Sequence record: OQ031072
Strand: one strand, 5' to 3'
Source: Shigella phage SFPB
DNA length: 64,000 bases
Under the pieces are notes generated by a model. It ran no database searches and was not told the origin of the DNA. It worked only from the letters and a program-made list of their open reading frames with translations. Below are positions 7,793-42,710 of this stretch, piece after piece. Numbering within the stretch: the first letter of the stretch is position 1; each line of letters begins with the position of its first letter. The position numbers were made by a program, and so were the translations under genes.

Positions 7793-8045
7793 TAGTTATC
7801 TGAAGGAGGGTTTTGAACCCTTCTATTCAGAAGAAAGTAGAAAAAAATTTGTAAAAGAGTGCTTGACTAAGATAGAGCAGTTCGGTAAAGTACTCATCAA
7901 CAAGGGACATGAAGTAAAGTTTGAGCACTTATCAAAAGATAATGTTGAGCAGTTTGCATTAGCGATTGATGGTTTATCTACAGTTTACATCTTTACCTTG
8001 ACTAATAAACATTTTGAATATGAAATATATCGGAGAGATTCATGA
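7764..8045 (+). CDS. hypothetical protein
   Basis: ORF track 93 aa. Confidence 0.35.
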   Translation: MMTVRSKLIDSYLKEGFEPFYSEESRKKFVKECLTKIEQFGKVLINKGHEVKFEHLSKDNVEQFALAIDGLSTVYIFTLTNKHFEYEIYRRDS

Positions 8046-32187: not shown

Positions 32188-32380
32188 TTTCTGCACTAAG
32201 TGTTCTGTTGAGATGTTTGGAAAAGACACAGGGGACTTAAAAGGCCTCTTTACAAAAGCAGAGTTTGAAGCTGGTTCAGCAATGCCAGTAATCTGTGAAG
32301 GTTGTGGTGCTTTATGGGTAGACCATGAAGGTAACCGAGTTAAACCATCTGAAGATAACGAACGTTGGGAGCATTACTAA
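32180..32380 (+). CDS. small zinc-ribbon protein
   Basis: 66 aa with CTKC...CEGC. Confidence 0.35.
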   Translation: MADFCTKCSVEMFGKDTGDLKGLFTKAEFEAGSAMPVICEGCGALWVDHEGNRVKPSEDNERWEHY

Positions 32381-32381
32381 T

Positions 32382-33176
32382 ATGGGTATCGTAAAAATTA
32401 TTAAAGGTGATATCTTTAAAGACTTTGATGGTAAGAAATTTGATATCATTGGTCACGGTTGCAACTGCATGAACTTGATGGGTGCAGGTATCGCAGCAAC
32501 AATTGCCAAACGTTACCCAAAAGCTTATGAAACTGATGCTGAAGTTTATGCTACAGTAGGTGGTGAAAATCATAACCCTAAGCATCTAATGCTTGGTAAC
32601 ATCTCTGTAGCACGTTTTAAGCAGGGTCGAATTGCTAACCTTTACACTCAGGTTATCACTGGCAAAGATGCACGATACAACGCCTTAGAAGCAGCTTTAC
32701 AGCGTCTTAACAACTACTGTAAAGTTAATCAACTTAAGAAAGTTGGACTTCCTATGATTGGTGCAGGGATTGGTGGTCTTGACAGCATGGCTGTGCTGTC
32801 TATCATCAATCAGACCATGAAAGATGTTGACGTTTATATGTATGTCTATGAAGATAAGATGTACAGTCAGTTGACTAGTCCGGTTACTGGTTGGGAAAAC
32901 TTTAGTGAACCTCAATACTTTGATGGTGTTGCCGTGGTAGGCAAGGATAAAGTTACTCTCAAGGTGAAGCGTAATGGTAAGGTACACACCAGTTACCCTC
33001 CGGTTGATAAGTACAATCGAAGTAACGCTCAAGTTACCCACCCGTTACAAGGCCATTGTCACAGAGCCGTAACATTTGGTGATGATGCAAGTGTGTATAT
33101 CGGTGCTGCTACAGAAGAGTTTGCAGAGGATTATATCACACATGAGAATGTTAACTATGTTGAAGCACGTAACTAA
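32382..33176 (+). CDS. macro-domain (ADP-ribose binding/processing) protein
   Basis: GDIFKDFDGKKFDIIGHGCNCMNLMGAGIAATI matches macro-domain GDIT...NAAN...GGGV core; ATG 32382 (track start 32325 overlaps upstream ORF). Confidence 0.5.
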   Translation: MGIVKIIKGDIFKDFDGKKFDIIGHGCNCMNLMGAGIAATIAKRYPKAYETDAEVYATVGGENHNPKHLMLGNISVARFKQGRIANLYTQVITGKDARYNALEAALQRLNNYCKVNQLKKVGLPMIGAGIGGLDSMAVLSIINQTMKDVDVYMYVYEDKMYSQLTSPVTGWENFSEPQYFDGVAVVGKDKVTLKVKRNGKVHTSYPPVDKYNRSNAQVTHPLQGHCHRAVTFGDDASVYIGAATEEFAEDYITHENVNYVEARN

Positions 33177-33201
33177 TAAGTTACCTAAATAGACATAGAC
33201 A

Positions 33202-33250
33202 AGCCCTCCAAAGTTTGAGTTTAAAATCTCAGGTAAGGAGGGCTTTTTCA
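33202..33250 (+). terminator. hairpin + T-run
   Basis: AGCCCTCC...GGAGGGCT + TTTTT. Confidence 0.5.
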
Positions 33251-33430
33251 TTTCAAATTTGTGCAGGTGCAATTGCATAGAACTCTGGACAGATTTCTTT
33301 AGCTGAACTCCAAAGGGAAAATTCATTTTCAATTTGTGCAGGTCTAGACTCCAAAGAGCTTTTTCATTTTCAATCTGTGCAGATGCAGTTGGACTCCAAA
33401 GGGAAAATTCATTTTCAATTTGTGCAGGTA
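33250..33430. repeat. tandem direct repeats (about 40 bp unit, 3-4 copies; core TTCATTTTCAATTTGTGCAGG)
   Basis: Copies near 33250, 33326, 33362, 33406 with ACTCCAAAG(G/A)G spacers. Confidence 0.6.
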
Positions 33431-33602
33431 GGTAGCTATAGGAAGCCAGCCCCACCATCCCCTCTTACTCCCCTTCCTCCCAAAAGTCAAGAGAAAAATT
33501 TGTAGAGAACTAAAAAATAATTCTTGACTAGTTTTCTGTTTTCTGTTAGTTGCGTACACGCGTTTCATTCACAACATGCCAAAAATATTTTTAAAAATTT
33601 TG

Positions 33603-33631
33603 TTGACTCTATGAATCCAGTTTTGTAGTAT
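33603..33631 (+). promoter_or_regulatory. sigma70-like promoter TTGACT-N17-TAGTAT (first cassette)
   Basis: Consensus match. Confidence 0.55.
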
Positions 33632-33685
33632 TTGCATCAACGGGGCAAGATAAAGCCCCAACAATCCTAAACTGGAGAATCTAGA

Positions 33686-33892
33686 ATGTTATATCAACGG
33701 GAATTAATGATTGTAGACAATAACAAAACTAAAAAACGTCGCTTCTTTATGTTAATCTGTGACGTGTGGCAAAGAATATCTGAAAAGGATTATGACAAGT
33801 ATGTTGATACATCAATCAGGTCGGATTGTTATTTGACAAATCACACAAGACAGTTTACAAGACATACAGCAGTTTACTACTATGACGTTTAA
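33686..33892 (+). CDS. hypothetical small protein (cassette-driven)
   Basis: ORF track 68 aa; cassette + ATG. Confidence 0.45.
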   Translation: MLYQRELMIVDNNKTKKRRFFMLICDVWQRISEKDYDKYVDTSIRSDCYLTNHTRQFTRHTAVYYYDV

Positions 33893-33903
33893 AGGGCTTG
33901 ACA

Positions 33904-34065
33904 ATGATTAAAGAAGGCAATGTAATAAGCTACAAAGATTTAGACGGATACCCAAAAATTGGGAAAGTTTTCTACCTTTACAAGTCAGTGATGGATAATG
34001 ACTGCATAGCCCTAACAAATGGCGACAAGATAACCATGAAAGATTTTATAAAAATTATTTCATAA
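33904..34065 (+). CDS. hypothetical small protein (53 aa)
   Basis: ATG 33904; below track cutoff. Confidence 0.3.
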   Translation: MIKEGNVISYKDLDGYPKIGKVFYLYKSVMDNDCIALTNGDKITMKDFIKIIS

Positions 34066-34154
34066 AGTGCTTTACATGGGGTTTAAAAAGGTAGTATCTT
34101 AAGCCCCAGATAAAGAGCTTTACCACTAAACAATCCTAAACTGGAGATTCTAAA

Positions 34155-34538
34155 ATGAAAAAATATTATATGCCAAAATTCATCAAGAAAGAAAACTTTC
34201 GTGATGCTCTGGAAAAATACATGAATGAGCAGTTCAAAGGTAAATTAATTGTTGTCCACGCATACAATTTTAAGTATGATGTAAATGGAAACAAGACAAA
34301 TCACTATACCGCTACGATGCTGGATGGTACACTCTCAGGTGAAAAAGCCATTATCAATGCACTGGCTGGACGTGGTAAAACGTTGATACGTTGTGATAAA
34401 CGCCGATATCAGGGCAGTTCTTATGGTTATGAGGATGCAGTCTATCACCTTGATAACATGGGTTACAATGTCGAAAAAGCTGGCGTGTCTCAAATGATTG
34501 GTAGTGATGGATATGTGACAATTTTTAAAATTAACTAA
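34155..34538 (+). CDS. hypothetical protein (cassette-driven)
   Basis: ORF track 127 aa; cassette upstream. Confidence 0.5.
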   Translation: MKKYYMPKFIKKENFRDALEKYMNEQFKGKLIVVHAYNFKYDVNGNKTNHYTATMLDGTLSGEKAIINALAGRGKTLIRCDKRRYQGSSYGYEDAVYHLDNMGYNVEKAGVSQMIGSDGYVTIFKIN

Positions 34539-34625
34539 TAAAGTGCTTTACATGGGGTTTATAGTTCAATAAGATAAGCCCCAGATAAAGAACTTTATTA
34601 CTAACCTAAACTGGAGATTCAAAAA

Positions 34626-34883
34626 ATGGCTACCATTAAAAACATCGTAATTACTGCAAAATCCCGTGATGATGCTCGTGCAACTGCTAAAAAATTAAAT
34701 GGTAAAGTGGTTGACAACGGAAAAGATTCTACTGTAAGATGGGGCGTAAAGACAGACAAAAAATTAACTCTTAAACATAGCTCTTACAATATGTTTAAAG
34801 GTGTAAAAACTATCGGTAACACTAACGTGTTTACAAAACAGGGTTACAAAATGCACTTAGCATTAATTGGCAATTTAATCTAA
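34626..34883 (+). CDS. hypothetical protein (cassette-driven)
   Basis: ORF track 85 aa; cassette upstream. Confidence 0.5.
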   Translation: MATIKNIVITAKSRDDARATAKKLNGKVVDNGKDSTVRWGVKTDKKLTLKHSSYNMFKGVKTIGNTNVFTKQGYKMHLALIGNLI

Positions 34884-34889
34884 AAGTAC

Positions 34890-34918
34890 TTTACATGGGG
34901 TTTATAAGTCGATAGTAT
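34890..34918 (+). promoter_or_regulatory. cassette promoter TTTACA-N17-TAGTAT inside GGGG/CCCC stem-loop
   Basis: Representative cassette copy. Confidence 0.5.
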
Positions 34919-34969
34919 AAGCCCCAGATAAAGAGCTTTACCAACAATCCTAAACTGGAGATTCAAAAA

Positions 34970-35482
34970 ATGAAATCAGTCGAAAGCACCTTTGAAGTTC
35001 AAAAAGAAAAATTTACTATCATCTTTGAAGCAATGAATGTTTATGAGCCTTCCCATTGTGTGGATAACTGGCAATTCACTGATGAGCATAAAGGAGGAGT
35101 TACAATCAAAGTTAAAAACTCAGAACGTAACGGCTACAAATATGCAATTCCTATGCACTATGCGCTTTCACAGCTTGCCAGTGATTACGCAAAACAGGGA
35201 AGGGATAACCCATCATTAGCCGCTTACAAGAGCTTACAAGATGAACTAGAAAGGGATTTAGGGGCTAATAGCTACATTCTATACGCCTCAGTAGTTGACG
35301 CTGAAGGCAACACGGTTTTAAATAGTTTTTCCCTTGCGTATGGTTTTGATTGGTGCTATCTTGACGGGGAAGATTTAGATTCACGCTTAAAAGAGGAAGT
35401 AAGCAATTCAGGTGCTGAAGAGGAAGTTTTAGAGCGCTTGGAAGATTTAAAAGATAGTGTGATGAATATCTTTAATATCTAA
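34970..35482 (+). CDS. hypothetical protein (cassette-driven)
   Basis: ORF track 170 aa. Confidence 0.5.
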   Translation: MKSVESTFEVQKEKFTIIFEAMNVYEPSHCVDNWQFTDEHKGGVTIKVKNSERNGYKYAIPMHYALSQLASDYAKQGRDNPSLAAYKSLQDELERDLGANSYILYASVVDAEGNTVLNSFSLAYGFDWCYLDGEDLDSRLKEEVSNSGAEEEVLERLEDLKDSVMNIFNI

Positions 35483-35567
35483 AAGTACTTTACATGGGGG
35501 TTATCAAGTTGCTAAGATAGCCCCAGATAAAGAGCTTTACCAACAATCCTAAACTGGAGAATCTAAA

Positions 35568-35858
35568 ATGAAAATTCCTGCTAATGTACGCTCAAAGTTA
35601 AGCCAATTACTACAAAACATTTCTTTTGTAGAATCTCATAGACGTTCACAGGATGTTATAGAGTGGTATCATGGGAAGATTAACAAGAAAGAAGTTTTAA
35701 TCTGTATTTGGAACTTTCAAAAAGAACATGGCAAGCCATTGCTTCAGGTTGACATTTATGATAATACTAGCAAATCAGCAGTAAAATCAAAAGCTGATAT
35801 GATTGATTCATATGAAATTAGTCACACTGGTAGATTATCACACGTTGGGAAGGTTTAA
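35568..35858 (+). CDS. hypothetical protein (cassette-driven)
   Basis: ORF track 96 aa. Confidence 0.5.
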   Translation: MKIPANVRSKLSQLLQNISFVESHRRSQDVIEWYHGKINKKEVLICIWNFQKEHGKPLLQVDIYDNTSKSAVKSKADMIDSYEISHTGRLSHVGKV

Positions 35859-35859
35859 A

Positions 35860-36186
35860 ATGTTACTTTCTGGTATCGCAATTCTGATTTCAATTGTGGC
35901 GCTATGTAAAGCTTATCAAGCCTCAGCATATGCAGATAAGGCCATCACAAGGAAAGTTAAAATAAACCTTGTAAGTAGCTTCTTAGAGCGTTTAAGCGTG
36001 GAACAATTACAACGTTTAGAGATGGGCTTCAGGTTTAAGGCAGACACTTATCAAATCAGTGATGTTTTATCCGGTAACTTTGAGCTTGTTAATGATTACA
36101 ATACGTTACTAAATGCTATTCAAGCTACTGATTTAAAAGAATATTATCCGGCTATTGCACAAGAAATTAATAAACGCAAAAAATAG
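35860..36186 (+). CDS. membrane protein (N-terminal TM)
   Basis: ATG 35860 after GGAAGG; MLLSGIAILISIVALC (track start 35803 overlaps upstream gene). Confidence 0.4.
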   Translation: MLLSGIAILISIVALCKAYQASAYADKAITRKVKINLVSSFLERLSVEQLQRLEMGFRFKADTYQISDVLSGNFELVNDYNTLLNAIQATDLKEYYPAIAQEINKRKK

Positions 36187-36269
36187 CTTGCAAAGGCAAA
36201 TCAAAACAAGTAAAGTACTCATCAACGGGGCAAGCAAGCCCCCAACAATCCTAAACTGGAGAATCTAAG

Positions 36270-36542
36270 ATGTATACAACTAATAATGGCAGAACTTTAA
36301 ATGTAACTTTAAAGCACTATGTAGATGGTGTATTAAACTTTGAAGACTTGCAAGCAGAACAGCACTTGTTAGCTTGGCAAGTAGCAGGATTACAAAAAAC
36401 CGCCACCGGATATGGGAAGAAAATCCCTACATCTTGGAAAGTTCGATACCTTGGAAAGTTACGCAGAATTTATCAAGATGTTTACAGTAATAGTGGTGTA
36501 AGTTACATTATTGTTAGTGGTAAAAAGTTACATCTTGCTTAA
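36270..36542 (+). CDS. hypothetical protein (cassette-driven)
   Basis: ORF track 90 aa. Confidence 0.5.
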   Translation: MYTTNNGRTLNVTLKHYVDGVLNFEDLQAEQHLLAWQVAGLQKTATGYGKKIPTSWKVRYLGKLRRIYQDVYSNSGVSYIIVSGKKLHLA

Positions 36543-36629
36543 TAAAGTGCTTTACATGGGGTTTATAAGTCGATAGTATAAGCCCCAGATAAAGAACTTT
36601 ATCACTAACCTAAACTGGAGATTCAAAAA

Positions 36630-37031
36630 ATGGCTACGAACAAAGATATAGCAGTACTGAAAGCACGTTTGACCGTTAACCGTATTAATGCTATCACATC
36701 AACCGCACCAGATGAGGTTTTACATAACATTATCGGTAAAATTCAGGGTGTAATTTTAGACGTTGAAAACATCAGAAATTCACTTGCAAATGTTGCACAG
36801 GGTGTTACACTTGACGGCGCACAATATGAAATGGCTGATATGCTTTCAAAGTCAAAAGTTCTTAATAAAGAATTAGACTTGAAAATGTTTCGATTTGCTG
36901 TTAAAGTGTGGTTATCTGTTGAGTTTGATGCTAACTTTGCAATTGCTGATTTCTTTGCAACGTGGTTACAACGTAATTTAGAAAAGCAAGATTTTCAAGA
37001 TATCTGCGATACAATTTACGCAGAACTTTAA
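36630..37031 (+). CDS. hypothetical protein (cassette-driven)
   Basis: ORF track 133 aa. Confidence 0.5.
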   Translation: MATNKDIAVLKARLTVNRINAITSTAPDEVLHNIIGKIQGVILDVENIRNSLANVAQGVTLDGAQYEMADMLSKSKVLNKELDLKMFRFAVKVWLSVEFDANFAIADFFATWLQRNLEKQDFQDICDTIYAEL

Positions 37032-37127
37032 AAAACGTTTGACACTAATTTTTAGATAGATTAAAGTACTCATCAACGGGGCAAGACAGAAGCCCCAACA
37101 ATCCTAAACTGGAGATTCAAAAATGAA

Positions 37128-37679
37128 ATGCTTTCACGGAACTACTCAAGAAAATTTTGTAAACCTGCTGAGTGGTGGAGAAAACCTTCAGGGGCTTGGA
37201 ATTGCTCAGACAGTGACGGGTGTTTTTATGTTTACCCTGTTAGTAAGTTCTATGATGTAGAGGATATGGACGCAGAACAAATCACTGAAGAGGGTATTAG
37301 AAACGCTCTGGATAGCGCAAGTATCACAGCGGCTTTCCAGATGAAATCACAAAAAATCGTTATCTTGGAACTTGATATTCCAGAAGATGAATTACAAGAT
37401 GACTGGAGCTGTGAGAACATGAGCGATGTTGCAAGCTTTACAGAATACTTTGATAGGGCTTGGATTAAAAAGATTTACACAACTGAATTTAATGCTATGT
37501 ATGCACCGTTTTTTGTACCTAACTTGAACAATAGAAATCTGGGCTATGTACCTGATGAATTACATAACATTGCTGTAATGATTCAACGTAGCGATGAGAT
37601 GAATAACGTGTTTTGTGATTTGTGCGACAACTTGCAATCTAACATAACAGAAAGCACTGTAAGCGACGTTTTAGCGTAA
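37128..37679 (+). CDS. hypothetical protein (cassette-driven)
   Basis: ORF track 183 aa; cassette-spaced ATG at 37123 is in another frame, start uncertain. Confidence 0.45.
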   Translation: MLSRNYSRKFCKPAEWWRKPSGAWNCSDSDGCFYVYPVSKFYDVEDMDAEQITEEGIRNALDSASITAAFQMKSQKIVILELDIPEDELQDDWSCENMSDVASFTEYFDRAWIKKIYTTEFNAMYAPFFVPNLNNRNLGYVPDELHNIAVMIQRSDEMNNVFCDLCDNLQSNITESTVSDVLA

Positions 37680-37742
37680 ACCATACAATCACACTAACAA
37701 CATTCAAAAGCCCTGTATAGGGGCTTACAAGGGGTTTAAATC

Positions 37743-37979
37743 ATGTTAACGACTATCTATCTCATGCTTGCCGTTTGCTCTGGTGCAAATAATTGTCATT
37801 ATGGCATTATGGAATCTTTCGAAGGCACTAAACAAAATGCAGTAGAGGCTTGCAATATTGCTAGACAGGACTACCCGAAATCGTCTATAATGGGCTGTTA
37901 TGTCTTACAAGGTGAAGACGAAAGCACAGAATACTACGAAAACGTTAATGAAGATGAGTTTTTAGAGATTTACAAATAA
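37743..37979 (+). CDS. small protein with N-terminal hydrophobic segment
   Basis: ORF track 78 aa; MLTTIYLMLAVCSG. Confidence 0.4.
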   Translation: MLTTIYLMLAVCSGANNCHYGIMESFEGTKQNAVEACNIARQDYPKSSIMGCYVLQGEDESTEYYENVNEDEFLEIYK

Positions 37980-38053
37980 AGTACTTTACATGGGGCTTTA
38001 AACCTTGCTACTATAAGCCCCAGATAAAGAGCTTTCCTAAACTGGAGATTCAA

Positions 38054-38203
38054 ATGATGACGCATACTATTGAGACAGTTTTTAACAACCCTGTATTCTC
38101 AGAGATGATTTTCTCATTTATCATGATGTTACTAGTAAAAATCATGAAAAAAGCAGAAAAACTACATTTAAAGAAAAAATCTATTGTAAACCGTATTAAG
38201 TAA
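38054..38203 (+). CDS. small membrane protein (49 aa, cassette-driven)
   Basis: Cassette + ATG; hydrophobic core IFSFIMMLLV; below cutoff. Confidence 0.3.
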   Translation: MMTHTIETVFNNPVFSEMIFSFIMMLLVKIMKKAEKLHLKKKSIVNRIK

Positions 38204-38250
38204 AGTTACAGTATCTATCAAGCCCACTTCCTAAACTGGAGAATCTGAAA

Positions 38251-38592
38251 ATGGCACATGTAACCATAATTACTGATAAAGAAAATTCATCTTGGTCTAC
38301 AAAAGTAAGTGATAAAGTGTCGCCTTTACAGTGCCTAAAATACTTTGAGCAATGGAATCGCGGCGAGGATGTTAGCCCGTTTCATGTGATGCGTATAGTT
38401 CACACTGACAAAGAAGGGAATAAAACAACCTTAAACAGTGAATACTATGCAACACGATTTGAAACAAAAGTTAACACAATGAAAATATTACGTGAATCCG
38501 GCTATGGTCACATTGCCGCTTTAATCTGGAGTGATTTACTCAAAGACCAAAAAATGACCTATGTCAAGACAGAAAAAATCTTTATAAGCTAA
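38251..38592 (+). CDS. hypothetical protein (cassette-driven)
   Basis: ORF track 113 aa. Confidence 0.5.
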   Translation: MAHVTIITDKENSSWSTKVSDKVSPLQCLKYFEQWNRGEDVSPFHVMRIVHTDKEGNKTTLNSEYYATRFETKVNTMKILRESGYGHIAALIWSDLLKDQKMTYVKTEKIFIS

Positions 38593-38787
38593 TCAATGAC
38601 TTACAAAATTCTTTGAAAAAACTGTTGACAATACCCCTTGACATTGATAGATTTGTTCGAGGGGTTTATCTAAAAGGGATTCACTTAAAAGATTCTTTAT
38701 AGATAAGCGTAAAAAGTACTTGCAAAGGTCTAATCATATCTATATAGTATCTTCAAAAGGCAACTTCCTAAACTGGAGAATCACTAA

Positions 38788-38928
38788 ATGTTAGATATCA
38801 TTAAAAACCCTATCCTTTGCGGTATGATTGTCTCTGTTGTGTTGCCATTAGCAATACTCATCATTGGTGAAATCTCAGATAAACTTTTTGATAAAAAACT
38901 ACTTGCAATACAGAATCAAAACAAGTAA
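38788..38928 (+). CDS. small membrane protein (46 aa, cassette-driven)
   Basis: Cassette + ATG; below cutoff. Confidence 0.3.
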   Translation: MLDIIKNPILCGMIVSVVLPLAILIIGEISDKLFDKKLLAIQNQNK

Positions 38929-38992
38929 AGTATTTATCAACGGGGAGGAGACTTCCCCACTAAAACAAAATTCCTAAACTGGAGAATCTAGA

Positions 38993-39520
38993 ATGAATAA
39001 GTTCCAAGCAATTAATCATATCCGTTCCAATGCAGTAATGAGCAAGCCAGTAAAAGACACCTTCGAATTTCGCTGTAATGACAAGTTGTTTGCAGTCATT
39101 ACGAAAGGGGAAGATAAAAAGTATTATGTACATCGCCAAAACGTTAAGGCGGTAACAGCAGATAACTTTATGCAAGCTGTTGCAAAAATTCTACCGGATT
39201 TTATGGAACTGGTAGCAGAACTTTGTGAACACTGCATCAAGTCATCAAAGGCAGAATTAAACCGCTTTAAAATGGCTTATGAGCGTTCTATCAAGTCTCA
39301 TAACATGTATATCATGCCATTGGCTTTTGGTACTCAGGCAATGGGAACAGGTTGTCATCCTTGCCACCTTTACGATGTAGAAAGCATTTACCTTAGTGAG
39401 ACAAAAGATATTGATTTTAGTTTACAGTTAGGACAAGCATTAAACGATATGATTAAATTACACGAAAAATCCGTAAAAGATATGCAAAAAGAGCTTGACG
39501 AAATCATCGTAAATCTATAA
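38993..39520 (+). CDS. hypothetical protein (cassette-driven)
   Basis: ORF track 175 aa. Confidence 0.5.
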   Translation: MNKFQAINHIRSNAVMSKPVKDTFEFRCNDKLFAVITKGEDKKYYVHRQNVKAVTADNFMQAVAKILPDFMELVAELCEHCIKSSKAELNRFKMAYERSIKSHNMYIMPLAFGTQAMGTGCHPCHLYDVESIYLSETKDIDFSLQLGQALNDMIKLHEKSVKDMQKELDEIIVNL

Positions 39521-39580
39521 AGTACTTATCAACGGGGAGGGAATGACCTTCCCCAACAATCCTAAACTGGAGACTAGAAA

Positions 39581-39844
39581 ATGAATAATCAAGAAATCAC
39601 TATCCTGTTACAAATTGGCACTGACAAAGAAGATATCCAACTTTGCAAACGTATTGAGAGTGATTGGTTCAACGGTGAAATCATCGCAGAATCTTATGAA
39701 GTAGTTGGATTCATGAATGGTGAAGTTGTAAGCCATTTTGGTTTAACTAAATCTGAAGCCGTTGCAAAGTATGACGTTTTATCTTGTGAGATTCTTACAA
39801 AATACAATGAAAAAAGACTTGCAACTTATGCAGCAATGAATTAA
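39581..39844 (+). CDS. hypothetical protein (cassette-driven)
   Basis: ORF track 87 aa. Confidence 0.5.
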   Translation: MNNQEITILLQIGTDKEDIQLCKRIESDWFNGEIIAESYEVVGFMNGEVVSHFGLTKSEAVAKYDVLSCEILTKYNEKRLATYAAMN

Positions 39845-39907
39845 TATTACTTTCAACGGGGAGGAGACTCCCCACTAAAACAAAATTCTAAACTGGAGAC
39901 TAGAAAG

Positions 39908-40084
39908 ATGAATTTTGAACAGCGTATGATTAGTAAATTTGGTGCTAAACGTTGGGAAGAGATGAAAAAAGAGCACGAAGAAAGAAAAAATGAAGAAACG
40001 GTAGTTATCACTGGTGTAGACTTACTAAATCACTCAGTTACTAACTATATCTTATCTGGTAACTCTTATAAGAAAGTTATCTAA
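39908..40084 (+). CDS. hypothetical small protein (58 aa, cassette-driven)
   Basis: Cassette + ATG; below cutoff. Confidence 0.3.
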   Translation: MNFEQRMISKFGAKRWEEMKKEHEERKNEETVVITGVDLLNHSVTNYILSGNSYKKVI

Positions 40085-40156
40085 TAAGTGTTGACAAGGG
40101 GTGTAAAAGCCCCTACTATTTAGAACCTAAACAATCCTAAACTGGAGAATCTGAAA

Positions 40157-40408
40157 ATGGCTACTATCCGCGCAACTGTTAATAATTTTGGCTTCCACGT
40201 ATTAGATGTTAAATTCGATATGGTTGGAACTGCCGATGCTTTCGGCATGGTTGATATGTGTCTAAAAGCAACTATTCAGGACTACAATCAATCTGAGTGG
40301 TTCTGGAAAGAAGTAAAACAAGAAGTCTTAAAGGATGGCGTATCCTCTTACTATTGGGGTGATTCTCTTATCACGCTTTACTATGAAGTTGACGGCTTCA
40401 ATAACTAA
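40157..40408 (+). CDS. hypothetical protein (cassette-driven, last of array)
   Basis: ORF track 83 aa. Confidence 0.5.
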   Translation: MATIRATVNNFGFHVLDVKFDMVGTADAFGMVDMCLKATIQDYNQSEWFWKEVKQEVLKDGVSSYYWGDSLITLYYEVDGFNN

Positions 40409-40449
40409 CAAGACGCCGCAACGGGGCAAATAGCCCCAGACCCTATACA

Positions 40450-40472
40450 AGCCCCTTCAATGGGGCTTTTTG
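40450..40472 (+). terminator. rho-independent terminator
   Basis: AGCCCC-TTCAAT-GGGGCT + TTTTT. Confidence 0.7.
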
Positions 40473-42017
40473 ACGTCTATACAATCTCTTTCTAGACTCT
40501 TACCAGACATTTAGAATAATAACTCTATAGATTACTCTATAACCTCTTATCAAATCAACTAACTTTTCCCTTAAATATAAGCCCATAACCCGAAAGGGAA
40601 GGGCAATCCCTAAAACGCTCTATAACGCTCTATACGGGCTTATCATCTCATCTTAAGCAATCATATTAAACCATTCTTAAAAGCCCTTCATAGAGCTTTC
40701 TAGAGCCTTAAAAGAATCTTATAAGGATATAAGCTTTATTATCTCGTTAGTATCTTGTGAATGGTTAAACAGGGGCTTGATAATAGCTTTAAAGTATGTT
40801 ATGGAGACTAAAAAGAGCTTAAAAGTAACGTAAAAGATGCTTAAAAGTAACGTAAAAGTTAGCCCCCTTTACATTCTCTTAACAAAATCTTAACAAATGC
40901 AACATAGTTATGCTTATTAGAGACTTGTTAAGCCTCAGTTAAATCCTTGTTAGAGGTATGTTAAAAGCTTGTTAGACACTTTGAAGTCCCTGTATAAGCC
41001 CCTAGAAAGCCCTATAAAGAGCTATACAGGTATTTGGGGTGTAGTTACTAGGGAGAATCTTAGAAGAGGCTATACAGAGCTACAGAGAACTTTTAAGAGG
41101 GCTTTATAGAGAATCACTAAGAAGGGAAGGGAACTATAGACCAAGAGATAGTGACCATGTTAATAGCTTGTTAAAAAGGTTTAGAACTTGTTAGCATCTT
41201 GTTAATTATCTTAACAAAATAACTATTAAGATTTAACTATTTAGCAACTTATAAGCAACTTGTTAGATTCTTGTTAGTAATGTTACAGAATGGTTAAGTT
41301 CTTGTTAGTTCTGTTAAGGGATTGTTAAGAACTCTGAAGAGATGTTAAGAGCTTGAGAGAGTTGTTAAGAGATTGTTAATGATATTTTAAGATTTTGCAA
41401 AGGGGATGTTACAGGGCTGTTAAGGGCTACCAAGCAGATATACACCCATGAGGTAGATTCTACCGAATCCACTAGTAGATATTTTTAGATTCTCCAAAGA
41501 CCCTAAAAAGTAACCTACCTAGTCTATTTTATAAAAATTTTATAGAACTGAATAACTATCTATACACTATCTTATATAAAACAGGAATTAACAGGCTTAT
41601 AAGATACCTTGTTAGTACCGTGTTAGACCTTGTAGGATAAGCCTTTACAGGGAATACCTGTTTAGTGTTATATAACAGTCTATATAGAGGCTTAGTTGAC
41701 CCTAGTGAACCATCTATAGAGAGTACTCTCTGTGACATAGAGATTAAGATGGATATAGGGGCTTCTAAGGGGCTATGAAGAGACTAGGAAGGTGATTATA
41801 TAGGTTTGGAAGAGGGCTTGTTAGAGAGCTTTGTAGAGGGCTATTTAGAAGGGGCTATATAGTTTCACTAGATAGAGACTAAGAGGCTATATAGATACTA
41901 TATAATACTATATAGAGAGTATGCTTAGATAGGTTGTTTAGAAGGTCTAGATATTTTATCACATATCATGGTGACCCAAGATGAACGGAGTGAATCCAAA
42001 TTTTATAAAATAATAAA
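40473..42017. repeat. ORF-free repeat-dense region; candidate origin or terminus-associated region
   Basis: No credible ORF; many short repeats (CTTGTTAG/TTGTTAAGA family, GCTATA(T/C)AGAG family); bounded by convergent terminators. Confidence 0.5.
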
Positions 42018-42036
42018 AGCCCCAAAAGAGGGGCTG
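42018..42036 (-). terminator. hairpin terminator at end of minus-strand operon
   Basis: AGCCCC-AAAAGA-GGGGCT with A-run on plus side. Confidence 0.5.
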
Positions 42037-42044
42037 TAAAGTTC

Positions 42045-42710
42045 TTAGCAAAGGTTATCTATGACAGCCTGAATAGCTGGAATAGTTGTGTGATAAAAAT
42101 GAGTGTTTCCGTTATGGGCTTCTCTCACTTGTAACATGATAGAGTGACCCTTTACAGGGAAGCATTGAATGTGATAACGATTCCCGTTAAATACTACTCC
42201 ACCACCTGAACAGAACCCTTCCAAGACTGACTTAGCAAGGAACTCTTCTTTCCCTGTGACCTTTATGAAGACACCCCTGTTAACTTGTGAATGGTAAATG
42301 TCTTCCATAAACAGCATCTGTTGTCCACCAAGTGAAACCATAGAGATACCTTTACGATTCTGCTCTTTAACATATATCTCAAGTTTCTTCAAAGTCTCTT
42401 CATAGAACGGATAAGACTTCTTCACAAAGATACCTTCAAGTGGCTCATCACCAGCATCTTCACGTTCATCTTTAAGTCTCTCTACAAGACAATTAAGACT
42501 TCTTCTCTCGCTATCGTCAAGATACTTATTGATATCTTCCAAGCTAAGTACCAAGTACTTTCTCTCTAAGTTAAATTCTTTGGTCATCTCTATCAAATCC
42601 TTAAAAGCTTTTTCAGTAACCTTCTTCCATTCTTCTGAGTTCTTCTTCTGAGGGAGTACCATATCTCTCAAGAACTTGAAACTCTTCTTCAGACGGGCTT
42701 CCATAATCAT
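42045..42710 (-). CDS. hypothetical protein
   Basis: ORF track 221 aa. Confidence 0.45.
   Translation of the reverse strand: MIMEARLKKSFKFLRDMVLPQKKNSEEWKKVTEKAFKDLIEMTKEFNLERKYLVLSLEDINKYLDDSERRSLNCLVERLKDEREDAGDEPLEGIFVKKSYPFYEETLKKLEIYVKEQNRKGISMVSLGGQQMLFMEDIYHSQVNRGVFIKVTGKEEFLAKSVLEGFCSGGGVVFNGNRYHIQCFPVKGHSIMLQVREAHNGNTHFYHTTIPAIQAVIDNLC

Follow-up and report, generated by a model that had tools for sequence, protein, structure and literature searches.

Small genes of Shigella phage SFPB stand behind repeated cassettes that resemble the promoter-early-stem-loop elements of T4-type phages

Genes and repeated cassettes of the array

The genome of Shigella phage SFPB (OQ031072) carries, on the + strand, a 6.9-kb array of 18 small genes (g01 to g18) behind 15 copies of a repeated unit of ~85 bases, the cassette, and our analysis covers the 64,000-nt stretch of the record that contains it (the window). 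We conclude that this region is probably an early-gene array built from regulatory cassettes of the promoter-early-stem-loop (PeSL) type. The array is bracketed by canonical intrinsic terminators. The one at the left boundary (33201-33250, + strand; hairpin AAGCCCTCC...GGAGGGCTT followed by TTTTT, -21 kcal/mol) ends the preceding operon and is the equivalent of terminator t13 of phage Felix O1 (PMC3185647), and the one at the array end (40449-40471, + strand; AAGCCCC-TTCAAT-GGGGCTT plus TTT) that of Felix O1 t23 (PMC3185647, Table 2). Between them, we confirmed 18 open reading frames (ORFs) on the + strand, in agreement with the initial annotation of about 18 small genes; its count of at least 16 cassettes came down to 15. 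Each cassette had been said to drive one ORF, which holds for 12 of them, whereas the other three precede two genes each. The genes without a cassette of their own are g02 and g07, both coupled to the preceding gene, and g11, which has its own Shine-Dalgarno sequence (SD) and hairpin. The 7-kb region matches 252 phage records, all of them Felix O1-like myoviruses (Ounavirinae), the closest being Shigella phage ESh22, Citrobacter phage KMM4, Escherichia phage mistaenkt, and Citrobacter phage Moogle. Its counterparts are ORF15-23 of Felix O1 and genes 0098-0111 of phage Bas63.

Every cassette contains a leader, (C/T)CTAAACTGGAGA, that is confined to the array within the 64 kb. When up to two mismatches were allowed, the leader sequence CCTAAACTGGAGA had 16 matches in the window, 15 of them on the + strand between 33666 and 40148, against a chance expectation of 1.7 (none of 100 shuffles reached 16). 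The initial annotation suggested that the leader may bind a shared regulator or RNase. No antisense copy of the leader, as a candidate regulatory RNA, was found in the window (≤2 mismatches) or in Felix O1 (≤1 mismatch), and in the whole Felix O1 genome the leader occurs in this array only. Two variants of the cassette exist, as initially reported: variant 1 (AAGTRCTTTACATGGGG) has six copies against 0.03 expected, and variant 2 (AAGTACTYATCAACGGGG) has four array copies (0.06 expected), with further, degenerate ones at g01 and g17. The leader places its GGAG 6-9 nt before the ATG, mostly 8-9, rather than the 8-10 nt first given.

A -35/-10 pair with a 17- to 18-nt spacer stands ahead of all 15 leaders, at a fixed distance from the leader, and a generic promoter scan independently recovered 11 of the 15. 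The proposed sigma70-like promoter is therefore present throughout, with the correction that the -35 hexamers also include TTGCAA, TTGTAA, TTGACT, and TTGACG. Among 85 distinct variant-1 copies, gathered from the fetched Ounavirinae genomes and a scan of viral contigs, CTTTACA at the -35 and positions 1, 2, and 6 of the -10 (T32, A33, and T37) are invariant, and positions 3-5 of the -10 and the spacer vary. Invariance at the -35 and at these three -10 positions is the pattern of base-specific contacts made by sigma70. Thus, the conservation of variant 1 is, as judged from these alignments, that of a working sigma70 promoter. The hairpin loop varies freely, so the copies must be old enough to have diverged where divergence was permitted.

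The initial annotation had suggested looking for the cassettes in related phages, and the variant-1 unit is present across the Ounavirinae: a search with the 86-nt variant-1 cassette returned 1,450 places in 287 phage records, all from this subfamily and extending to the distant phiEa21-4 group of Erwinia phages. A motif table was used to compare leaders across genomes. The leader 12-mer occurs in 10-15 identical copies per genome in Mooglevirus and Suspvirus, takes three kinds in Felixounavirus, and is different again in the Erwinia phages. As it is uniform within a lineage and differs between lineages, we infer that leaders have been homogenized within lineages.

Some further observations concern the same elements. 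In Erwinia phage phiEa104 (9.7-15.3 kb), the variant-1 promoter-hairpin is ~87% identical over 68 nt, whereas the cargo proteins are just 32-46% identical; the Erwinia members have another leader and SD (CCCTTATAAAGGAA) and a changed order of units. The second codon is AAA or GCU in 7 of the 15 cassette-led genes (AAA in g03, g05, g06, and g10; GCT in g04, g09, and g18). AAA and GCU are among the most favorable second codons for expression in E. coli. The ATGGCTAC shared by g04 and g09 belongs to an exchanged tract described below. Elsewhere in the window, at 7862-7905, a promoter of the variant-2 family (TTGACT-N17-TAAAGTACTCATCAAC) stands without hairpin or leader, apparently within coding sequence.

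Hairpins within the cassettes

A stem-loop had been attributed to each cassette, and we found one in 13 of the 15: six are two-tier structures, one lies within the promoter spacer (ahead of g18), and six are in the 5' untranslated region (UTR), whereas the g13 and g14 cassettes have none. The two-tier hairpins have predicted energies of -19.7 to -21.9 kcal/mol alone and -23 to -27 kcal/mol in the context of the cassette, and those in the 5' UTR reach -8 to -14 kcal/mol. The GGGG...CCCC clamp of variant 1 forms the middle of the two-tier hairpin, which the initial annotation overlooked. This hairpin has 21 bp, and the stop codon of the preceding gene, the -35, and some of the -10 all lie within it. 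Its lower stem consists of 11 pairs between the stop codon/-35 region (TAAAGTGCTTTA), with the stop codon TAA in the stem, and AGATAAAGAGCTTTA; a 2x2 internal loop follows and then an upper stem of 10 pairs, which takes in the 3' portion of the -10. There is almost no variation in the 3' arm AGATAAAGAGCTTT.

We examined pairing in an ungapped, anchor-based alignment of 73 distinct variant-1 copies from many Ounavirinae. Pairing cells amounted to 95.0%, compared with 34-55% when partners were slid by 1-3 columns, and cells changed on both sides numbered 101, compared with 23 ± 5 in shuffles (0 of 500 reached the observed number). Compensatory swaps occur at five pairs; for example, G-C has become U-A at two positions, one of which accounts for the change from GGGG/CCCC to GGTG/CACC in Erwinia phages, and the top of the stem shows five types of pair. 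The stems contain 134 G.U but only 13 A.C combinations. Because G.U far exceeds A.C, the structure appears to be favored on the + strand only. This points to selection of the variant-1 hairpin as sense-strand RNA, with a hairpin of single-stranded + strand DNA as a formal possibility. The predicted minimum free energy fold agrees with the covariation-supported structure. The variant-2 hairpins have stems of only 5-8 bp; of 44 distinct sequences, 97% fold at ≤ -6 kcal/mol, compared with 13% of shuffles.

The cassette hairpins do not look like terminators. None is followed by a U-tract (AGAUAAAG or AACAAUCC follows), and a terminator scan called none of them. As the variant-1 hairpin is followed by AGAUAAAG in place of a U-tract, it is not a canonical terminator. 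The variant-1 promoter is predicted to start transcription where the 3' arm of the upper stem ends, so the full hairpin could form only in RNA that originates from an upstream promoter. A search of 33000-42500 on both strands against Rfam gave no match at E ≤ 1.

A second, much smaller structure may form in all 15 leaders (e.g., 34947-34960), where UCC could pair with the GGA of the SD (UCC-UAAACU-GGA); it is too short for statistics. Its equivalents are CCU...AGG in the Felix O1-type leaders and CCUU...AAGG in the Erwinia phages. This mini-hairpin could modulate ribosome access or be a feature recognized by a protein.

Units, cargo, and exchange among relatives

The array opens with cassette C01 (variant 2, 33603-33685, + strand, as for all features of the array), which has -35 TTGACT at 33603-08, -10 TAGTAT at 33626-31, a 5'-UTR hairpin at 33642-59, and the leader at 33666-78. 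It would drive g01 (33686-33892, 68 amino acids [aa], phrog_5293) and the coupled g02 (33904-34065, 53 aa, phrog_14219), which are of unknown function and conserved in relatives. Four variant-1 cassettes follow. In C03 (34063-34154), the two-tier hairpin (34064-34121), supported by covariation, is formed around the stop codon, the -35 TTTACA (34071-76), and the -10, with the leader at 34135-47; it precedes g03 (34155-34538, 127 aa, phrog_4495), an accessory unit that is missing from Moogle, mistaenkt, and Felix O1. C04 (34539-34625; hairpin 34540-96, -35 34547-52, -10 TAAGAT 34570-75, leader 34605-17) precedes the accessory g04 (34626-34883, 85 aa, basic, phrog_5089). C05 (34881-34969; hairpin 34883-34939, -35 34890-95, -10 TAGTAT 34913-18, leader 34949-61) precedes g05 (34970-35482, 170 aa, acidic, phrog_4190), a core unit equivalent to Felix O1 ORF16, whose transcript is at its maximum at 5 min (PMC3185647, Table 3); a structure model of g05 was uninformative. 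C06 has one extra G (35480-35567; hairpin 35482-35538, -35 35489-94, -10 TAAGAT 35513-18, leader 35548-60) and would drive g06 (35568-35858, 96 aa, phrog_4401) together with the overlapping, coupled g07 (35860-36186, 108 aa, phrog_4375), which has an N-terminal hydrophobic segment.

In the middle of the array, C08 (variant 2, 36187-36269; -35 TTGCAA 36188-93, -10 TAAAGT 36211-16, 5'-UTR hairpin 36227-42, leader 36250-62) precedes the core unit g08 (36270-36542, 90 aa, phrog_3436), and C09 (variant 1, chimeric, 36543-36629; hairpin 36544-36600, leader 36609-21) precedes the core unit g09 (36630-37031, 133 aa, phrog_4327; Felix O1 ORF20, maximum at 5 min). C10 (variant 2, 37032-37122; -35 TTGACA 37039-44, -10 TAAAGT 37062-67, hairpin 37078-96, leader 37103-15) is a recombination hot spot with seven breakpoints and stands ahead of g10 (37123-37679). 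The stretch from 37680 to 37979 holds a stem-loop, AAGCCCTGTATAGGGGCTT, at 37708-26 and then g11 (37743-37979, 78 aa), which has a signal-like N terminus. C12 is a variant 1 with a short leader (37977-38053; hairpin 37978-38035, -35 37985-90, -10 TACTAT 38009-14, leader 38036-48) and precedes the accessory g12 (38054-38203, 49 aa, hydrophobic, phrog_31746). C13 (38184-38250) has its promoter, TTGTAA-N17-TACAGT, within the end of g12 and a decayed hairpin of which ...AGCCCACTTCC is left, with the leader at 38230-42; it precedes the core unit g13 (38251-38592, 113 aa, phrog_4318; Felix O1 ORF21, maximum at 5 min).

Toward the right end, an ORF-less spacer (38593-38719) with TTGACA-N17-TAGATT and a CCCCT...AGGGG hairpin is a probable cassette remnant. 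C14 (38720-38787; TTGCAA-N17-TATAGT, no hairpin, leader 38767-79) precedes the accessory g14 (38788-38928, 46 aa, hydrophobic, phrog_7482), in whose 3' end the promoter of C15 is encoded. C15 (variant 2, 38903-38992; -35 TTGCAA 38903-08, -10 TAAAGT 38926-31, hairpin 38942-58, leader 38973-85) precedes the core gene g15 (38993-39520, 175 aa, phrog_4725; Felix O1 ORF22, maximum at 5 min), and C16 (variant 2, 39495-39580; -35 TTGACG 39495-500, -10 TAAAGT 39518-23, hairpin 39534-54, leader 39561-73) precedes the accessory g16 (39581-39844, 87 aa, phrog_7022). C17 is a degenerate variant 2 (39819-39907; -35 TTGCAA 39819-24, -10 TAATAT 39842-47, hairpin 39858-73, leader TCTAAACTGGAGA 39887-99) ahead of the accessory g17 (39908-40084, 58 aa, no PHROG match). 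In C18 (40085-40156), the entire hairpin, AGGGGTGTAAAAGCCCCT (40097-40114), lies within the 17-nt spacer between TTGACA (40091-96) and -10 TACTAT (40114-19), with the leader at 40136-48, and the core gene g18 (40157-40408, 83 aa, phrog_4559; Felix O1 ORF23) follows. A hairpin-only half cassette, CAAC-GGGGCAAATAGCCCC-AGA (40423-40437), is found just ahead of the array terminator. This piece and the spacer at 38593-38719 recall the degraded "1/2 PeSLs" found by indels in T4-like phages (PMC4122927).

The cargo proteins are unrelated to one another: an all-against-all BLASTP comparison of the 18 found no similarity, and 17 of them fall into 17 different PHROGs, all of unknown function. The repeats thus do not stem from gene duplication. 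None of the 18 proteins has a Pfam domain, as expected from the initial annotation, and its mention of tiny membrane proteins is supported by membrane-type hydrophobic segments in g07, g12, and g14. Sequence searches of the three largest proteins, g05, g10, and g15, against PDB chains returned nothing below E = 0.26. The g10 family has an ADP-ribosyltransferase fold, in which the residues of the NAD site are conserved (in the order H..Y..E). In SFPB, the gene, 185 aa if intact, is split into 45-aa and 183-aa ORFs by a 1-nt deletion, the loss of one A from an A5 run (~37181-84; GAGAAAAACC to GAGAAAACC) that is intact in ESh22 and Moogle. The ORF range of 45-183 aa given initially thus took its two ends from a single gene. 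The deletion removes the conserved HGT motif, and the public SFPB annotation has the same 183-aa ORF; either the gene is truly a pseudogene or the homopolymer was misread in sequencing. The g10 homolog of Bas63, gp107, is conditionally essential, being needed on E. coli S17-1, and was likened to the NAD-binding domain of Tpt1 (PMC11482910), a remark that fits the fold assigned here.

The suggestion that the array is a host-takeover or anti-defense island is weakly supported, and we consider it a reasonable guess with one supporting gene. In its favor are the fold of g10, the conditional essentiality of gp107, and the transcription of the array in Felix O1, where all eight ORFs tested (14, 16, 17, and 19-23) gave transcripts, which peaked at 5 min for ORF16, 20, 21, and 22 and at 25 min for ORF14, 17, 19, and 23 (PMC3185647), so that four of the eight homologs peak early. 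Of the 18 proteins, 17 belong to PHROGs of unknown function.

Comparison with relatives indicates that the units of the array are modular. When the array was aligned with seven relatives by BLASTN, the cassettes, which cover 23% of the span, contained 37 of the 42 internal alignment ends (P = 3e-19) and, after shared events were collapsed, 13 of the 18 breakpoint clusters (P = 1e-5). The units of g03, g04, g12, g14, g16, and g17 are present or absent as blocks. Protein identity to mistaenkt switches from 55-93% (g01-g10) to 91-100% (g11-g16), and identity to ESh22 drops from >90% to 59% at g15; the two switches lie at cassettes, those of g10 and g15. The order of units is collinear among the enterobacterial members and rearranged in phiEa104. 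The clearest trace of exchange is C09, which is identical to the phage's own C04 at 99 of 115 positions and has the hairpin loop of C05, whereas five relatives share another type at this place. The replaced tract extends into the first three codons of g09. The cassette at g09 has been converted to a chimera of two non-orthologous ones. The term "hyperplastic" used in the initial annotation is apt, given the variably present units, the breakpoints and identity switches at cassettes, and this conversion.

The surroundings of the array also have some unusual features. Upstream are rIIA, rIIB, polynucleotide kinase, spanins, and, adjoining the array, a gene for a macro-domain protein (32325-33176; Pfam Macro, E = 8e-8; "phosphatase" in the annotation of relatives). 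Given that a macro domain may bind or remove ADP-ribose and that g10 is only a few kb away, the two genes may form a functional pair. Between the upstream terminator and the first promoter of the array, 33226-33429 contains four direct copies of a ~43-nt unit (...CTCCAAAGGGAAAATTCATTTTCAATTTGTGCAGGT) at spacings of 75, 41, and 45 nt; relatives have small minus-strand ORFs annotated there. These repeats could be iterons or an array of sites for a regulatory protein. Downstream of the array is a 1.5-kb noncoding region (40500-42040) rich in short repeats (~20 copies of CTTGTTAG/CTTGTTAA, five of GGCTATATAGA, and three of AAAAGTAACGTA), at which gene orientation and GC skew switch. The mistaenkt record begins ~470 nt past the last array gene and has a repeat region annotated there, and UAB_Phi87, another Felix O1-like phage, has 608-bp terminal repeats. 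We regard 40500-42040 as a candidate replication origin and/or genome terminus.

Relation to PeSLs and interpretation

PeSLs were defined in phages RB49 and phi1 as units that run from an upstream stop codon in A/T-rich sequence through a promoter and stem-loop to an SD and ATG, and that are clustered next to indels in hyperplastic regions (Arbiol et al. 2010, PMC2839356). The resemblance to such elements of T4-type phages, proposed in the initial annotation, extends to every feature of this definition that can be checked in sequence, plus a shared SD module. A sigma70-like early promoter is found in 15 of 15 cassettes and a stable stem-loop in 13 of 15, at three of the five published positions (within the spacer in C18, over the -10 in variant 1, and after the -10 in variant 2). 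The unit extends from stop codon to ATG. Fifteen copies are clustered among small ORFans in 6.9 kb, with none in the other 57 kb of the window, and indels and replacements occur at the elements (37 of 42 breakpoints, plus cassette conversion).

For a direct comparison, PeSLs were extracted from 50 kb of RB49 (NC_005066). In these 50 kb, GGAGAWTC with a following ATG is present 11 times, always at PeSLs, against 0.4 expected; in the window this motif occurs 13 times, always in the array, and not once in the other 57 kb. The likeness of RB49 PeSLs and the array cassettes extends into the initiation region (...ACTGGAGAATCAAAAATG). Cassette profiles searched with nhmmer aligned over their full length with the PeSLs of ORF210 (E = 0.003) and ORF205 (E = 0.03), E-values similar to those reached by control promoters. 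An initial-transcribed motif, ACACATCAA, that is apparently shared with RB49 was not enriched, and tblastn of the 18 cargo proteins against the same 50 kb gave no convincing homolog (best, g11 at E = 1.5e-4 over 47 residues and g05 at E = 0.006). Several RB49 PeSLs (114.5-123.7 kb) fold with an outer stem, in which GTGTTG of the -35 region pairs with CAATAC of the -10 region around GGGG...CCCC. The two-tier form may therefore be a general, undescribed feature of PeSLs.

The cassettes share with the RB49/phi1 elements the stop codon in an A/T-rich start, the sigma70 promoter, the GGGG...CCCC stem-loop, the SD with ATG, the clustering of ORFans, and the indels, and C18 has the commonest RB49 layout. 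They differ in that the RB49/phi1 elements are found in Straboviridae and the array in the unrelated Ounavirinae; in the 11-bp lower stem of variant 1, which joins the stop-codon/-35 region to sequence past the start site; and in the invariant 13-nt leader. Promoter activity, terminator activity, and mini-circle formation were shown by experiment for RB49 (PMC2839356). Among the PeSLs and PmSLs of PST/T4 and nt-1/KVP40, the PST/T4 promoter TTTACW-N17-TAYWAT is that of variant 1, with -35 TTTACA as the early consensus, and decayed "half" elements near indels are comparable to C13, 38593-38719, and 40423-37; in contrast, their stem-loop is upstream of the promoter (AGNA...TCNT or A3-4G3...C3T3-4), and no conserved leader was reported (Comeau et al. 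2014, PMC4122927).

The same repeats have been recorded before in close relatives. The 57-bp direct repeat of Felix O1 (CTTTACATGGGGCTT...CCCCAGATAAAGAGCTTTACCACT) is variant 1 and its 39-bp direct repeat (TTGACACTGG...ATTACACATCAAC) is the variant-2 promoter (PMC3185647), and DR_1 to DR_9 in the wV8 record (NC_012749) are also these cassettes. The Felix O1 and wV8 records give them as repeats only, with no role as promoter, hairpin, or leader or in gene turnover described; the Felix O1 paper listed five other promoters and stated that temporal regulation was unknown (Whichard et al. 2010, PMC3185647). In a search of the open-access literature, we found no paper that treats the Ounavirinae cassettes as promoters or as PeSL-like or that gives RNA-seq or transcription start site data. 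Lambdoid morons (Hendrix and colleagues; discussed in PMC2839356) are also autonomous expression units between genes; however, they are single units with unrelated flanks and canonical terminators, and no repeated linker guides their exchange.

Based on these comparisons, the array appears to represent PeSL-type cassettes in a second, unrelated phage subfamily. The design itself is known; what is new is the comparative evidence for an RNA-level stem-loop far longer than those described and for an initiation module shared with the RB49 PeSLs. We propose that each unit, from the preceding stop codon to the next ATG, would supply a promoter for host sigma70, a G/C-clamped hairpin, and a constant, unstructured 5' leader with GGAG 8-9 nt ahead of the ATG, so that a small gene between two cassettes could be expressed on its own. 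Host RNA polymerase would fire at every cassette early in infection. As the full variant-1 hairpin could form only in read-through RNA, it may act there as an insulator, either by attenuation or by RNase III-type processing and 3'-end stabilization. Promoter output would then not accumulate along the array, and each gene would be translated from the same short leader. The variant-2 hairpin, predicted to lie 2-8 nt from where its own mRNA begins, could in addition shield that mRNA from decay that depends on the 5' end. The ~85 nt of shared sequence could serve as a substrate for homologous recombination that shuffles whole units without breaking genes.

Several points weigh against this reading. 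The evidence for promoter activity, transcript ends, and recombination is indirect. The hairpins, lacking a U-tract and not called by the terminator scan, stand in an array with canonical terminators at both ends, which makes efficient termination at them doubtful. The cassettes exist as a few copied "haplotypes," so that the covariation counts over-count independent events. The timing seen by reverse transcription-PCR in Felix O1 does not separate the variants, and half of the homologs peak at 25 min. The enrichment of breakpoints is partly expected, given that surviving indels must respect gene boundaries and that BLAST segments naturally end in shared repeats. Finally, homology of the whole cassette to RB49 PeSLs is not statistically established, as the best nhmmer E-value (0.003) was matched in the control, and we make no claim that the entire cassette descends from a common ancestor.

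In phage T7, long, imperfect RNase III hairpins with an internal loop lie between the early genes; they act only on polycistronic RNA and leave a stabilizing 3' stem. The variant-1 hairpin, also long, imperfect, with an internal loop, and placed between consecutive genes, could likewise serve for RNase III-type processing, with read-through transcripts cleaved at the 2x2 internal loop or in the lower stem; the T7 hairpins differ in having no promoters, as the T7 early genes share three at the left end. We consider this possible but somewhat doubtful, and regard it as a sharper version of the insulator step and not as a rival to the cassette model. About two helical turns is the size that E. 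coli RNase III requires, and variant 1 has the size of a substrate, with 21 pairs in two tiers, a symmetric internal loop, and -23 to -27 kcal/mol. Selection on the RNA strand, the missing U-tract, and the near-invariance of the 3' arm also fit. After cutting, the upstream mRNA would end in a hairpin, and the downstream mRNA would have nearly the 5' UTR of the primary transcript. However, RNase III could not act on hairpins as short as those of variant 2, which would have to be explained in another way than variant 1, and in RB49 a PeSL stem-loop alone reduced expression of a downstream reporter as much as the rrnB T1 terminator did, which the authors read as termination or attenuation (PMC2839356). 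The palindromes might alternatively act as DNA, in the form of cruciforms or of recombinase or repressor sites that shut the early promoters, with RNA irrelevant. A bound protein or cruciform would indeed control the promoter, as the hairpin overlaps the -35 and -10; recombination does occur at cassettes; and the PeSL authors speculated that GGGG...CCCC is the target of a DNA-binding protein (PMC2839356). Nevertheless, neither a duplex-DNA site nor a symmetric cruciform would show the excess of G.U over A.C, and the stem sequences change freely if pairing is kept, unlike those of a sequence-specific protein site. We therefore regard a DNA-level role as distinctly unlikely.

A different concern is that the cassettes are conserved merely as optimal expression signals and that ordinary recombination, after selection, looks cassette-bounded. 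The restriction of surviving indels to gene boundaries, the collinear gene order among enterobacterial members, and the AAA/GCU second codons, which fit tuning of expression, are all compatible with this. It does not account well for C09, in which parts of two non-orthologous cassettes of one genome type are joined and the replaced tract enters coding sequence, for identity switches exactly at cassettes, for leaders homogenized within lineages and differing between them, or for the different unit order in Erwinia phages, and we consider it unlikely. Very unlikely is an origin of the array from one gene that was duplicated in tandem along with its upstream region, or of the repeats as selfish elements, inserted between genes, like miniature inverted-repeat transposable elements or repetitive extragenic palindromes. 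The intergenic sequence is repeated and palindromic, and earlier authors annotated direct repeats. Duplication is refuted by the dissimilarity of the 18 proteins and their 17 separate PHROGs. As for selfish elements, all copies point the same way and occupy precisely the interval between stop codon and ATG, the conserved positions are those expected of promoter, stem, and SD rather than of transposon ends, and there are no copies beyond this array in Felix O1.

The PeSL-type cassette model thus remains our preferred reading. It can be taken further, to a scenario that we hold to be rather unlikely, in which PeSL cassettes would be a shared regulatory "currency" of unrelated coliphage families: Krischvirus and Ounavirinae would have the same initiation module and interchangeable promoter-hairpin units that can move in mixed infections, and the two-tier hairpin would be an RNase III-type signal that makes uniform single-gene mRNAs and insulates promoters stacked 15 deep.

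If the array is read as PeSL-type cassettes, the repeats of Felix O1 and wV8, uninterpreted since 2009-2010, would be explained, and the missing early promoters (predicted) would be supplied for phages that are widely used in Salmonella and E. coli typing, biocontrol, and therapy. The PeSL concept would be extended beyond T4-like phages, with evidence for selection on sense-strand RNA that was absent for the original PeSLs. The array may be seen as a modular region of "expression slots" in which accessory genes, such as the ADP-ribosyltransferase-fold family, turn over; it is therefore a sensible place to seek host-takeover or counter-defense genes, and it offers a chassis for payload genes in Felix O1-type phages. 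With the GGAGAWTC-ATG module present in two phage families, exchange across families or a common trans-acting factor becomes testable.

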